Origin: a virus
Taxonomy: Duplodnaviria; Heunggongvirae; Uroviricota; Caudoviricetes
Direction: 5' to 3' (one strand)
DNA length: 64,000 nucleotides
IMG/VR virus record: IMGVR_UViG_3300042870_001966
The notes below the pieces were generated by a model. The model had not been told where the DNA came from, ran no database searches, and saw only the letters and a list, made by a program, of their open reading frames with translations. The position numbers were made by a program, and so were the translations under genes. Below are positions 3,995 to 61,238 of the stretch, in pieces (the stretch's first letter is position 1; each line of letters starts with the position of its first letter).

Positions 3995-4585
3995 ATGATT
4001 AAGACCTTTAAAACTTTTACAAATGAAGCACTTAGTCCAGCTATTTTAACTAGTTCAATTAATGAGTGTACAGCTAATCAACTTAAGAGTATTTCTGAAT
4101 TTAAAAGTACTTATAAAACTGAGTTAGATAAAGCAAATAAGATTGTTAACGTATACCAGGTAATTGATAAATTTAGTACCTGGCTAGTTGGTAAAACTCC
4201 AGCAATGGTCCAAGCTGCTCTATTAAATTCGCCAGGAACTGCTGATAAACTGGTAATTGAGGCATATACTTTCATTTATATGGAAATACAAAATCAATTA
4301 AAGTCAATTGGTACACTTAAAAAATCAGCACTTAAATTACTGGCTCCATCCGCTGCTGACTTTGATTCGCAAAAAACTGACTCAGACTTAGTGAATCAAA
4401 TTATACAATTAGTGGAATCGTTATTTGATGTAGGCTTTATGATTGGTTACAAATTTGACAGTAAGTCAATTGAGGCAAATAATGCTTCAAACTGGTCAGT
4501 TTCTTTTACCAAATCTCTTAATTCTAGGAAATCTTTAATATTCAAAAATATTAAACTATTAATTCGTAACTTTTTATATAACTAA
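3995..4585 (+). CDS. hypothetical protein with CTS-like N-terminus
   Basis: Begins MIKTFKTFTNE. Confidence 0.7.
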   Translation: MIKTFKTFTNEALSPAILTSSINECTANQLKSISEFKSTYKTELDKANKIVNVYQVIDKFSTWLVGKTPAMVQAALLNSPGTADKLVIEAYTFIYMEIQNQLKSIGTLKKSALKLLAPSAADFDSQKTDSDLVNQIIQLVESLFDVGFMIGYKFDSKSIEANNASNWSVSFTKSLNSRKSLIFKNIKLLIRNFLYN

Positions 4586-4591
4586 TTGTCT

Positions 4592-4864
4592 ATGACAAAA
4601 TTAAAAGAATGTTTATTATTATTTGCAATTCAGCTTGTACTGTATGGAATTTTATGCATAAATTTTAGAGCAGTTGCTGAAACTCAATATCACTTAGCAG
4701 CAGTTAGTGATTTTACAATAGCTTCACTAAATTTTTTCGTAATCCGAAAAATTGCAAAGAGCGAAGATTCACTACACCAATGGTTTGGTTATGTTACTGG
4801 CTCAGTAGCCGGGTCATATTTAGGAATTTGGTTATCGGTTCAACTAGCCAATACAATTTTGTAG
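4592..4864 (+). CDS. small membrane protein
   Basis: About three hydrophobic segments. Confidence 0.65.
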   Translation: MTKLKECLLLFAIQLVLYGILCINFRAVAETQYHLAAVSDFTIASLNFFVIRKIAKSEDSLHQWFGYVTGSVAGSYLGIWLSVQLANTIL

Positions 4865-4876
4865 TATAATAACTAC

Positions 4877-5851
4877 ATGAAAGATACTAACGTCCGTTTG
4901 GGTTACTGTTGCATTAACTTGTCTCTAGCCGACCAAAAAATTACAGCCAATCGAGGTATGATCCGTAAAACCTTTCAAGAAAAGGGCGTTTCATATTGTG
5001 CTGAGCTTGCGCATCAAAATATAAAAGATGTTCTAAAAATTCTACAATGGAATTTAGCTAATGGCATTTACGTATATCGAATGTCAAGCGATATTTTTCC
5101 ATGGATGTCAGAGTACGAAATTACTCAGCTTCCAAACTTTATGGAAATCTTGCCAGACATGCAGGCAATCGGCAAGTTTGTAATTGCAAACGGCATGCGA
5201 ATCTCAATGCATCCAGGCCAGTTCGATGTTCTGCCATCTCCCAATCCAGCGGTTGTCACAAAAACAGTCAAGGATCTGGACCAGCATGCGCAAATTATGA
5301 CCTTAATGGGCTTGCCAATTGACCATAATTATCCAATTAACATTCATGTCGGTGGGACCTATGGCGATAAGGAGTCCGCTGCTCAACGATTCTGTCAGAA
5401 TTTTCAACGTCTCCACGAAAATACTAAGGCCAGGCTTGTTGTCGAAAACGACGATAAGGCTACACAGTACTCGGTACTCGATCTTTTTCAATTAGTCTAT
5501 ACGAATATTGGCACGCCAATTACATTTGATTTCCATCATCACCGTTTTAACACCAGCGATCTTACTGAGGAAGCTGCACTCGCCCTAGCTGCCACTACCT
5601 GGGGACGCGTGACTCCGCTCACTCATTACTCTAGTAGTAAAAAAACATTTGAAGATCCGTCAGTTATTGCCAGATCCCATGCTGATTACGTTTACGAACA
5701 GATAAATACTTATAATCGCAGTTTCGATATTGAGATAGAGGCCAAGGCAAAAGACCTAGCCGTACTTAAGTATCGTGACTCTTCTGTGAGTCTTCTTGAA
5801 AACTACTTGGAGTTCGATGATAAAAGATACTTTGAAAAAATAGCAGACTAA
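4877..5851 (+). CDS. uvsE: UV-damage endonuclease (UvsE/UVDE)
   Basis: RLGYCCIN, YRMSSDIFPW, SMHPGQF, ENDD, FDFHHH, HADY, EAKAKDLA. Confidence 0.93.
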   Translation: MKDTNVRLGYCCINLSLADQKITANRGMIRKTFQEKGVSYCAELAHQNIKDVLKILQWNLANGIYVYRMSSDIFPWMSEYEITQLPNFMEILPDMQAIGKFVIANGMRISMHPGQFDVLPSPNPAVVTKTVKDLDQHAQIMTLMGLPIDHNYPINIHVGGTYGDKESAAQRFCQNFQRLHENTKARLVVENDDKATQYSVLDLFQLVYTNIGTPITFDFHHHRFNTSDLTEEAALALAATTWGRVTPLTHYSSSKKTFEDPSVIARSHADYVYEQINTYNRSFDIEIEAKAKDLAVLKYRDSSVSLLENYLEFDDKRYFEKIAD

Positions 5852-6112
5852 ATGACTGATCAAACTACTGAAGACTGCGGATGCGGTTCAACGCCAGCAA
5901 CTCCAAAACCTACGGTACTTAGCCGAATCATCGATAAAGTGTTTGTTAGTGAAGATCTAAAGAATCACCGAATGTCCATTTGCAAACAGTGTCCTCATTT
6001 TGGAGAGACCCTATCCCAATGTGGAATATGCGGCTGTTTTCTTGAAGCAAAGACTCGACTGGTAGGATTTCACTGCGCGCTAGATCAAATAGGCGAGCAA
6101 CCTAAGTGGTAA
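5852..6112 (+). CDS. small Cys-rich (Zn-binding) protein
   Basis: CKQCPH...CGICGCF...C. Confidence 0.7.
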   Translation: MTDQTTEDCGCGSTPATPKPTVLSRIIDKVFVSEDLKNHRMSICKQCPHFGETLSQCGICGCFLEAKTRLVGFHCALDQIGEQPKW

Positions 6113-59033: not shown

Positions 59034-59035
59034 CA

Positions 59036-59245
59036 ATGGCAAAAACCGTAGTAGTAAAAGAACAGTTCAGAACAAACGAACTAAGCCTAAACCCAGGTGG
59101 GTACACAGTTACCGTAGTATATTCAAACGGCGACAAGCGAGTTTATAATAACGTAAAGAATCCCAAAGCCTACATTGGATCAATATCGAAAGCACAAGAT
59201 GTTTCTCAAGCCCTAGTTGACGGAGAACTTTATTGGTCTCGATAA
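59036..59245 (+). CDS. hypothetical protein
   Basis: MAKTVVVKE..., 69 aa. Confidence 0.65.
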   Translation: MAKTVVVKEQFRTNELSLNPGGYTVTVVYSNGDKRVYNNVKNPKAYIGSISKAQDVSQALVDGELYWSR

Positions 59246-59261
59246 ATAACTAGAAAGCACT

Positions 59262-60068
59262 ATGCATAAATTAAGTTTCGTTTGCACGTCCTATCGTAGG
59301 TACCGTTGCGTTGAACGAATAATCGAACAGTACTTACAACAAGACTATCGAAATGCTGAGCTAATTATCTTAAATACTGATACTGACAATCCATTTCGGT
59401 TATCTGATGGATTGCTGTATGCAAATATTACAGTAATTAATAATTCAATTGATTACGTTACTGGATTACCGTATACTAATCGTGGAGCCATTTGTAGAGA
59501 TGCAGTCTCCCATGCAACTGGCGACTACTTCATGTTAGCTGATGACGATGATGTTTACTTGCCTTGGCATTTTAGACAAGCAGTTGAAGGTATAATTGAA
59601 ATCGGGCACGATTCATGGAAACCTGAGATGAGTATGTTTGCGGCTCCTAATAAGCTAGAGCTTGTTCGTAATACAATGGAGGCATCCGTTATTGTAAAGA
59701 TGCACAGAATCAGAGAGATTGGTTTCCGAACTGATGCAACCGGGTATGAAGGTTTAAGCTGGTACACCAAGCTTAGAGATGAGGGTCAATTGGACGAGCA
59801 CAACCCACGATATATTCCTTCTTACTGCTTTAACTGGTCAGATCCAGCTGAATTGGCTGGCCATAAACAGAGCGGCGATATCAACAATCCAAATAACTTT
59901 GAGAACCATAAGTTAAGTTCAAGAGATATTTCAGATAAGCCACTAGATCGCTGCGGCTCTCTAGAGATTACTAAGTTCTATCAAAAGTACTTTGATTTCT
60001 TACGAGCAAATCAAGATAAGTTCAGTCAAGATCTTTGGGGCAGGTACGCAAAAACGTATATCGGTTAA
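59262..60068 (+). CDS. glycosyltransferase family 2-like protein
   Basis: FVCTSYRR....R.IE.YL.QDY, LADDDD (DxD); late promoter at 59242. Confidence 0.8.
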   Translation: MHKLSFVCTSYRRYRCVERIIEQYLQQDYRNAELIILNTDTDNPFRLSDGLLYANITVINNSIDYVTGLPYTNRGAICRDAVSHATGDYFMLADDDDVYLPWHFRQAVEGIIEIGHDSWKPEMSMFAAPNKLELVRNTMEASVIVKMHRIREIGFRTDATGYEGLSWYTKLRDEGQLDEHNPRYIPSYCFNWSDPAELAGHKQSGDINNPNNFENHKLSSRDISDKPLDRCGSLEITKFYQKYFDFLRANQDKFSQDLWGRYAKTYIG

Positions 60069-60092
60069 GAATTTGTCTAATAAATAACTTAG

Positions 60093-61238
60093 ATGAAACA
60101 CTTAAAACCATACAACCAGTTCCTTAATGAGGGAGAATTCTACAAAGGAGAATTGAACTCTATATTCTGGCAGGACCAGAAGTTTAACCCAGAGGTTCGT
60201 ACGAAACTTTTGCAGATTGCAACTGATTTCTATACTGACCTAAAAGTTGAAGCACCAATCATAGACATTCATTTGACTGGATCTCTAGCTAACTTTAACT
60301 GGACAGAACACTCTGACTTGGACGTCCATGTTATTCTAGACTTTACTATTATCGGAGATGACGTTGAGCTTGTAAAGAAAGCAGTTGATGGATTACGTTT
60401 TATCTGGAATCTTAGACACCCAGTAAAGATCCAAGGTTTTGATGTTGAATTGTATGCACAAGACAAGGACGAACCACACGTTGCATCAGGTTTATATTCC
60501 CTAATGAAAGACGAATGGATCACGGTTCCTGAACCAAGTAATCCACAGATTGACGAAAAGGATGTTTACCGTAAAGTAGAGGCATTCATTACTGAAATTG
60601 AGGAACTTGAAAAGGAAGTAGTTAAGTCAGATTCAGATCAGGCTAGAGAAGTACAGGACAGAATCTCTGCTCTTAAACAGAAAATCATGAAGGCTCGTAA
60701 AGAGGGTCTTGCTGCAAACGGTGAGTTCTCTATCGAGAATCTAGTATTTAAACAGTTGCGTAATCAAGGTTACCTTGAGAGATTGATTGACTTAGGCGCT
60801 GATGCATATTCCCATATCTATTCTGAACCAAACGATTCACTAGACGATAAGCCATCTGATGTAAACGAAAATATCTCAATGGGAAAAGGCAGTTGCGTTC
60901 TAGTACTTGGTCCTGAAGTTCAGGGTCAAAAGAGACTATTCGCGTTTCATGCAGAATACATTAATGAAGTTGAACGAAACGGTTGGCAAGTAAAAATGGT
61001 TGGACTTGGCGCTCCAAGTCTGGTTGTTAATCAAGACGGTAGACTTGTTGCAAAGCAGGTTAACATGAATGCTGCTAATCTAAAGAAGTTCGCAGGTCTT
61101 TCCAGCAATACAGTAGTCTTAAATTCAAAAACCAAGACCCCATACTGGCACCAAACCGTTAAGTACACGAATCATCAAACTCTACTAAACGACATGGGTC
61201 GTACATTAATGTCAATTCCCGGAGTTTCTTTCGACTAA
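60093..61238 (+). CDS. Pol-beta-superfamily nucleotidyltransferase with CTS-like N-terminus
   Basis: MKHLKPYNQFLNE; IHLTGSLAN...SDLDVH...VELY; late promoter at 60080. Confidence 0.85.
   Translation: MKHLKPYNQFLNEGEFYKGELNSIFWQDQKFNPEVRTKLLQIATDFYTDLKVEAPIIDIHLTGSLANFNWTEHSDLDVHVILDFTIIGDDVELVKKAVDGLRFIWNLRHPVKIQGFDVELYAQDKDEPHVASGLYSLMKDEWITVPEPSNPQIDEKDVYRKVEAFITEIEELEKEVVKSDSDQAREVQDRISALKQKIMKARKEGLAANGEFSIENLVFKQLRNQGYLERLIDLGADAYSHIYSEPNDSLDDKPSDVNENISMGKGSCVLVLGPEVQGQKRLFAFHAEYINEVERNGWQVKMVGLGAPSLVVNQDGRLVAKQVNMNAANLKKFAGLSSNTVVLNSKTKTPYWHQTVKYTNHQTLLNDMGRTLMSIPGVSFD

Follow-up and report, generated by a model that had tools for sequence, protein, structure and literature searches.

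A short N-terminal peptide on about thirty unrelated late proteins of a T4-type phage, and its likeness to the T4 capsid-targeting sequence

The DNA considered here is a stretch of 64,000 nucleotides, referred to as the window, which corresponds to the minus strand of positions 99,007-163,006 in a 271,290-bp IMG/VR virus record (IMGVR_UViG_3300042870_001966) rated as complete by CheckV. Many of its genes encode products that begin with the same kind of peptide, hereafter the tag, which is about 12 residues long and with which about thirty unrelated late proteins of this uncultured phage begin. A first-pass annotation, made from the letters alone, had listed 21 such N-termini in the window and had likened them to the capsid-targeting sequence (CTS) of phage T4. 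All 21 translate as it had quoted them, but they are not of equal quality: 16 are strong, scoring 11-27 bits on a leave-one-out position-specific scoring matrix (PSSM), except for one at 8.6 bits, while five, at 5 bits or less in round figures, are weak or shifted by one residue. Genome-wide, 293 genes were called by a home-made script based on open reading frames (ORFs) and codon usage, with starts corrected by hand in a few cases (14416, and the ORF at 30323, which the caller had missed); genes are named below by the position of their start in the window.

In the left half of the window, strong tags open an ORFan of 196 residues (MIKTFKTFTNE followed by A; 3995..4585, plus strand; 17.2 bits), for which neither Pfam nor PHROG gave a match; a 417-residue cell-wall hydrolase with a VanY-type peptidase and an endolysin-like domain (13163..14416, minus strand; MENKILNFKQFLTE followed by A; 16.5 bits); a 265-residue protein with a weak M78-like metalloprotease signal (19918..20715, minus strand; MKLLSTYSDWLNE followed by N; 14.5 bits); a 153-residue protein with a Pro/Ala/Glu-rich linker after the tag (20767..21228, plus strand; 16.7 bits); a Cys-rich protein of 62 residues (21249..21437, plus strand; 13.1 bits); and two ORFans of 539 residues (25544..27163, minus strand; 23.1 bits) and 417 residues (27824..29077, minus strand; 26.6 bits). 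The strong tags of the right half all lie on the plus strand. They belong to proteins of 193 residues (50269..50850; 8.6 bits) and 104 residues (50859..51173; 11.9 bits), both with tags ending in D; a 74-residue protein with a Pro-rich, basic body (51886..52110; MQHIKLFEQFIAE followed by F; 18.6 bits); a 452-residue ORFan (52097..53455; 15.3 bits); a GH24 lysozyme of 281 residues (53459..54304; 22 bits); proteins of 277 (54778..55611; 18.2 bits), 379 (55622..56761; 11.5 bits) and 478 residues (56758..58194; 17 bits); and a Pol-beta-type nucleotidyltransferase-like protein of 381 residues (60093..61238; 16.5 bits). The body of a further, 22nd tagged protein (156 residues) occupies positions 1..439 on the plus strand, its start, MKIKAFSEFLAE followed by S (18.1 bits), lying 32 nucleotides before the window.

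The weak variants comprise a 158-residue protein whose tag core is one residue shorter (8740..9216, minus strand; 0.4 bits), a 121-residue protein with a variant tag and a peptidoglycan-binding domain (14406..14771, minus strand; 4.8 bits) and a 656-residue ORFan in which the aromatic residues are replaced by L and I (15565..17535, minus strand; 5.2 bits), each of these three being preceded by its own ATAAATAA. To these are added a 143-residue protein whose tag has one extra residue and falls below the threshold (29892..30323, minus strand), with TATAAATAA 5 nucleotides upstream, and a 100-residue protein whose second aromatic is Ile (48504..48806, plus strand; 4.8 bits).

When 25 tags are anchored on their core, the consensus reads M-K-H-[IL]-K-x-[FY]-x-Q-[FW]-[LVI]-N-E, followed by A, N, S or G, with a hydrophobic residue at position -3 (I, L or V in 24 of the 25), aromatic residues at 0 and +3, [LVI] at +4, N at +5 and E at +6. 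Past the terminal Glu and its small follower, the aligned tags have no conservation whatsoever; the core ends at residues 9-15, the bodies behind it are dissimilar, and the point at which conservation halts resembles a prohead-protease site of the hydrophobic-x-Glu type. The core [FY]xx[FWI]xx[ED], ending at residues 8-16, is found in 30 of the 293 genes, where its frequency in the rest of these proteins predicts 3.9 (p 4e-17). The scan of the whole proteome that the earlier annotation had proposed yields 26 genes scoring at least 8 bits, where chance would give 0.38, and 33 scoring at least 4 bits, where it would give 2.5. These enrichments rule out chance as the cause of the tag. A paralogous family is ruled out as well, since the 33 tagged bodies give no BLASTP match to one another at 1e-3, and the bodies are thus as unrelated as had been claimed. 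At the nucleotide level, conserved tag positions are written with synonymous codons (TTT/TTC, AAT/AAC, GAA/GAG, ATT/CTT/TTA) and the spacers upstream vary, from which it follows that selection acts on the peptide and not on a DNA repeat; the same two features rule out a DNA-level repeat or a promoter-leader cassette. A second mini-motif, [ED]-E-L-x-[SA]-[LM]-G-F, is common to four tagged proteins and lies 3-6 residues past the tag in three of them. Its carriers are encoded at 48504-48806 and 50859-51173 in the window, both in the form EELxxxGF, and at 56750-58081 and 80268-80819 in genome coordinates.

The tagged genes are associated with a recurrent upstream element. The sequence ATAAATAA occurs at 78 sites in the genome against 45 expected from base composition (the T4 late promoter sequence, TATAAATA, is present at 14 sites), and 56 of the 78 lie within 120 nucleotides upstream of a gene start, mostly at 5-32 nucleotides, large structural genes included. 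It had been proposed that most of the listed genes have such a promoter or sit in an operon that does; 13 of the 21 indeed have their own ATAAATAA, and the rest lie downstream in ATAAATAA units. Genome-wide, all 26 tagged genes fall in these units, compared to 145 of the remaining 267 (p 7e-7). The tagged genes in the left half of the window, each with its own late-type promoter, run on the strand opposite to that of the untagged genes listed next. The untagged genes of the window encode a DNA ligase, a dNMP kinase, an RNase T-like exonuclease, UvdE, Fpg, a 2OG oxygenase, thymidylate synthase, a PD-(D/E)XK nuclease, an HDAC-like protein, a patatin, DUF2589 proteins, a glycosyltransferase and topoisomerase II. 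The tag is missing, as the first-pass annotation had stated, from the replication and repair genes of the window (ligase, exonuclease, UvdE, Fpg, ThyA, nuclease and topoisomerase). The genome encodes a homologue of gp55, the T4 late sigma factor (genome positions 241,571-241,990; E 2.4e-5), which is consistent with late expression of the gp55 type from TATAAATA-like promoters.

By tblastn with the capsid protein, the relatives of this phage are 460-735-kb ‘huge phages’ (LR756500-4), the Prevotella Lak megaphages, Tenacibaculum phage pT24, Flavobacterium phage MaF61, phage PAU and the MA9V phages of Chryseobacterium; about 2,400 T4-like records (2,401) match more distantly. The real host of PAU, described as a ‘Sphingomonas’ phage, is a Sphingobacterium (PMC3738902), and therefore the clade infects Bacteroidota. 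No GenBank phage was matched by megablast with 8 kb of the window, and a tRNA search of the window found none. Shine-Dalgarno sequences are lacking at the gene starts, as is usual in Bacteroidota.

Homologues of the head genes of T4 on which a capsid-targeting role would depend, and whose presence the first-pass annotation had made a test of its reading, are encoded in the genome. A gp21-type prohead protease is recognized by Peptidase_S77 (PF03420; 38.4 bits, above the cut-off) and phrog_207 (E 4e-33), and its gene lies immediately upstream of that of a gp23-like major capsid protein (MCP), identified by a match to phrog_138 and by tblastn to T4-like records. Here, as in PAU and in 80 relatives, small tagged genes adjoin those of the MCP and protease; in the 80 IMG/VR relatives, whose capsid identity is 52-84%, the tag of the small gene immediately downstream of the MCP gene is retained, with changes that preserve its pattern. 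The MCP's N-terminal region carries S-I-N-E sites, and 18 distinct MCP orthologues share an invariant [ILV]-N-E followed by S, A or G at about residues 51-54, after which come an indel-rich linker and the conserved shell domain. Tag ending and MCP site are thus both of the [LVI]-N-E type. In PAU, N-terminal sequencing of the MCP revealed a mature protein of 520 of 585 residues, about 65 being lost (PMC5646251, Table 1), and the cut lies within one residue of A-L-M-E. The conserved site and the processing of the PAU protein suggest that the MCP of this phage also has a propeptide.

The protease itself carries sequences that resemble the tag. Its gene (genome C1:8613-10451, minus strand) encodes 612 residues, of which 1-220 form the protease domain, while residues 240-393 consist of 11 tandem 14-residue repeats of the form I-x-Y-S-E-Y-L-G-E-x-V-x-x-x, followed by K-K-L-N-E. 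The repeats account for 8 of the 57 matches to [FY]xx[FWY][LIVM]x[ED] in the proteome, the other matches being mostly N-terminal tags, and they are conserved, linked to the protease, in IMG/VR relatives. This C-terminal extension looks like a fusion of protease and scaffold, and its likeness to the tag may mean that tags co-assemble with a repeat region resembling a scaffold, or else that the protease acts on both. A complex prediction that paired protease residues 236-420 with residues 1-40 of the tagged lysozyme scored 0.00 with both chains poorly folded, a result that speaks neither for nor against binding. In PAU, in which the protease gp151 is a separate gene, the protein ends in KKLYESIKSKILKR: K-K-L-Y-E-S, which is the PAU tag core and is not followed by a cleavage motif. 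A C-terminal tag core of this kind would fit a docking role rather than that of a mere cleavage site.

Recognizable bodies behind the tag are those of 14416, 14771, 53459, 60093 and, weakly, 20715, the remainder being ORFans. The GH24 lysozyme at 53459 has a PHROG match as well, to the ‘internal virion lysozyme motif’; variants of the tag are carried by about 60 full-length homologues with identities as low as 45%, whereas cellular lysozymes are untagged and begin with a signal peptide or with the catalytic domain. A separate group of distant GH24 homologues begins with another conserved N-terminus, MRKKIIQLTESDLRELVRKI, which may be the address peptide of another lineage. The product of 60093 likely has a Pol-beta-type fold, given weak Pfam matches and weak Foldseek rows against the PDB to ANT/AAD and CD-NTase enzymes (best E 7e-3). 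In its AlphaFold (AF2) model, with a predicted local distance difference test (pLDDT) score of 82, residues 1-14, which include the tag, are unpacked at pLDDT below 50, and the fold starts near residue 20. Its family counts about 1,700 metagenomic proteins, and the tag is recognizable in 84 of the 120 best matches. Orthologues of the 539-residue cargo (27163) at 47-52% identity also retain the tag, which is hence kept, in three tagged families, in orthologues at 45-52% identity. A locus search seeded with exact words yielded only two relatives of the 539-residue cargo, because cargo genes diverge too fast for such seeding, and a protein-atlas search with the 539- and 656-residue ORFans gave no usable lead (scores of at most 0.87, template-modelling scores below 0.3).

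Two better-known phages provide points of comparison for these data. In T4, the CTS, present on IPI, IPII, IPIII and Alt (Mullaney and Black 1996, as cited in PMC3012670, PMC9958956 and PMC5694885), loads diverse internal proteins, as well as fused foreign proteins, into the scaffolding core, after which it is removed by gp21 (PMC3012670, PMC9958956, PMC5694885). The T4 genome (NC_000866) encodes an IPIII that starts with MKTYQEFIAE followed by A and an IPI that starts with MKTFKEF; on a PSSM built solely from the tags of this phage, IPIII reaches 18.1 bits, inside the range of the phage’s own tags, so that the likeness drawn in the first-pass annotation holds for this protein, while IPI reaches 3.7 bits only. 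The start of T4 gp57B (Acb1), MMEFKDF, also resembles the F-x-x-F core of the CTS. In PAU (NC_019521), 21 of 291 called genes begin with MKT[LI]xxLYE, often followed by xKLNE. Four of the five coding sequences annotated in GenBank as ‘internal capsid protein’ are tagged (gp142, gp154, gp199 and gp270), as is the annotated scaffold gp152 (hypergeometric p 1e-4), and gp154 scores 13.3 bits on the tag PSSM of the phage studied here.

All the computational checks put forward in the first-pass annotation thus turned out favourably, and taken together these observations make it probable that the shared peptide is a capsid-targeting propeptide of the T4 type. In such a scheme, the tagged genes would be transcribed late, from ATAAATAA promoters read by the gp55-like sigma factor. 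The tag would then form a short amphipathic helix, with its hydrophobic residues at -3, 0, +3 and +4, and dock its protein into the scaffolding core of the assembling prohead, for which the 11 protease-fused repeats, each resembling the tag core, are a speculative partner. The gp21-family protease would cut after the terminal Glu of [LVI]-N-E, the same three-residue site that is present in the putative MCP propeptide, and the mature proteins would remain in the head and exit with the DNA at infection. Their number would include the lysozyme, the VanY-type peptidase, a peptidoglycan-binding protein, the nucleotidyltransferase-like enzyme and many ORFans.

A wider reading is more tentative, and we consider it possible but rather doubtful. 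It would hold that, across a large clade of jumbo and mega phages of the T4 type that infect Bacteroidota and are mostly uncultivated, a modular tag, readable from sequence, loads dozens of exchangeable proteins into each virion, among them cell-wall hydrolases, nucleotidyltransferases and anti-defence enzymes. The tag would do so by mimicking one 14-residue coiled-coil repeat of those fused to the protease, and would thereby co-assemble with the scaffold.

Several points weigh against a targeting role. Five of the 21 listed tags are weak, and about half of the untagged genes are also in the late units, which were generously drawn, so that late expression is a necessary condition and not a specific one. 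Bodies of up to 656 residues, and some 6,400 residues of cargo in all when the strong tagged bodies are counted at one copy each, must compete with DNA for space in the head. Many mature bodies are acidic (isoelectric point of about 4-5), unlike the basic internal proteins of T4. One of the PAU ‘internal capsid proteins’, gp70, is untagged, and the basis of those GenBank notes is unpublished as far as could be found. Injection is, moreover, a longer step than incorporation into the prohead: some tagged proteins may be parts of the core or scaffold that are degraded and not delivered.

This last point, carried to its end, provides the first alternative, in which the peptide is solely a signal for assembly and degradation of the prohead core, tagged proteins being cut up and expelled before DNA packaging, like gp22, gp67 and gp68 of T4, with few or none delivered. 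The tagged scaffold of PAU and the tag-like repeats of the protease both fit this view, as do several tagged proteins whose small size, acidity and low complexity recall those of core proteins, and the core proteins of T4 are indeed degraded by gp21 (PMC9958956). However, the bodies include folded enzymes (the GH24 lysozyme, the VanY peptidase and the nucleotidyltransferase fold) whose activity would serve no purpose unless they survived; tagged PAU proteins are annotated as components of the capsid interior; and IPI and IPIII, the T4 proteins with the closest tags, are retained and injected. A role restricted to the core is thus plausible for some of the small acidic members and not for the folded enzymes, and as a general explanation we regard it as unlikely.

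A second alternative is that the peptide is a leader for some other phage enzyme, chaperone or compartment, such as a maturase of the kind that acts on ribosomally synthesized and post-translationally modified peptides (RiPPs), or intracellular sorting, and not a capsid address. The radical-SAM version of this idea was rejected, as PF04055 has no match in the 271-kb genome while 14 of 14 control genomes do match. More generally, the [LVI]-N-E end that the tag shares with the putative propeptide of the capsid protein, its match to the experimentally proven T4 CTS, its co-occurrence with head genes and the position of small tagged genes beside those of the MCP and protease make any such leader function very improbable. 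Finally, a by-product with no sorting role, whether an A/T-rich start that favours translation or a promoter-leader cassette spread by recombination, would agree with the A/T-rich tag codons and with the many tags that lie 5-30 nucleotides from a shared promoter, but it hardly deserves credence in view of the free use of synonymous codons and the differing upstream spacers, of a motif that is amphipathic at the protein level and ends sharply at Glu, of the retention of the tag in orthologues diverged to about 50% protein identity, and of operon-internal tagged genes that lack a promoter of their own.

Elsewhere in the window, two regions devoid of tags were observed. Positions of about 30500-48000 have a G+C content of 44-46%, compared to 38-39%, with many short, weakly coding ORFs and no tagged gene. 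Within this stretch lie two sigma-70-family genes (33191-34189 and 37495-38223), a gene for a Tox-MPTase3-like metallopeptidase (43731-44240) and, on the minus strand, one for a serine resolvase (44203-44841); the stretch may represent an inserted element or else an island of early genes. The other, at 21804-24888 on the minus strand, is an untagged late-promoter block that encodes a patatin-like phospholipase and a pair of DUF2589 proteins, of which one has a peptidoglycan-binding domain; together with the flanking small genes, whose products have lipoprotein-like signal peptides, it may serve lysis or envelope functions.

If the tag acts like the T4 CTS, the proteins delivered with the DNA could be listed from the genome alone. 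Such proteins, most of which are ORFans here, would act before the expression of any phage gene, and the tagged lysozyme, VanY peptidase and nucleotidyltransferase-like protein suggest tools made in advance for wall crossing, early takeover or counter-defence. The list would span a clade to which the Lak megaphages and the largest known phage genomes belong, and were the wider reading to hold, the injected proteome of thousands of environmental phages would be predictable from sequence. It would also offer a tractable answer to the question of how proteins localize to a T4-type core, a process still termed ‘mysterious’ (PMC9958956), for which the tag-like repeats of the protease provide a concrete hypothesis regarding the CTS receptor. 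A short, portable tag for loading the large capsids of Bacteroidota phages would, in addition, be a useful handle for engineering. No paper was found that describes a shared short tag on 20-30 proteins in PAU, pT24, Lak or the huge-phage clade; the paper on Chryseobacterium phage MA9V-1 reports sodium dodecyl sulfate polyacrylamide gel electrophoresis (SDS-PAGE) only.

One of the closest known systems is that of T4. It shares with this phage a peptide of 10-15 residues at the N-terminus of late proteins that are otherwise unrelated, an M-K-x-[FY]-x-x-F core ending in hydrophobic-x-Glu and then a small residue, and the presence of a protease of the gp21 family, a gp23-like capsid protein and late transcription of the gp55 type. 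The two differ in that about 26-33 proteins are tagged per genome here, against a handful in T4; that the bodies here extend to 656 residues, include peptidoglycan hydrolases and a nucleotidyltransferase-like enzyme and are in many cases acidic, whereas those of T4 are basic; that the tag here is longer and has an additional hydrophobic residue conserved at -3 as well as an Asn at P2; and that the host belongs to the Bacteroidota. PAU, of the same clade by its MCP, has a sister tag, MKT[LI]xxLYE(xKLNE), on 21 proteins, with tagged genes clustered around those of the portal, protease and MCP, the last of which is processed (PMC5646251); it differs by the Leu-Tyr-Glu core of its tag and by a protease and a scaffold encoded as separate genes, the scaffold itself being tagged. 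In about 20 kb around the MCP gene of Prevotella phage Lak-C1 (code 15), three proteins of 350-400 residues begin with MNK[LQ]I[KR]xL[LI]E[NS]LFDD, which may be a Lak-specific version of an N-terminal tag.

The giant phages phiKZ and Salmonella phage SPN3US also possess a gp21-like protease, which processes many proteins inside the head by cutting after Glu (Thomas et al. 2012; PMC5694885, PMC10052503), and they package dozens of proteins, some of which are ejected into the host (PMC5694885, PMC10052503). Their propeptides are, however, long (often over 100 residues) rather than one shared short tag, the cleavage motif is S/A/G-x-E, and they form an unrelated lineage with a virion RNA polymerase. 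To load far more proteins than T4, as was claimed for this phage, would not be unprecedented among giant phages, since large sets of head proteins are known in these two. Outside this field, the cargo-loading peptides of encapsulins are likewise short terminal peptides common to unrelated enzymes that direct them to the interior of an HK97-fold shell; they differ in being C-terminal and uncleaved, in binding the shell protein directly and in being part of no virus or delivery process. The CTS principle is textbook knowledge for T4; a new element here is a protease whose repeats resemble the core of the tag.

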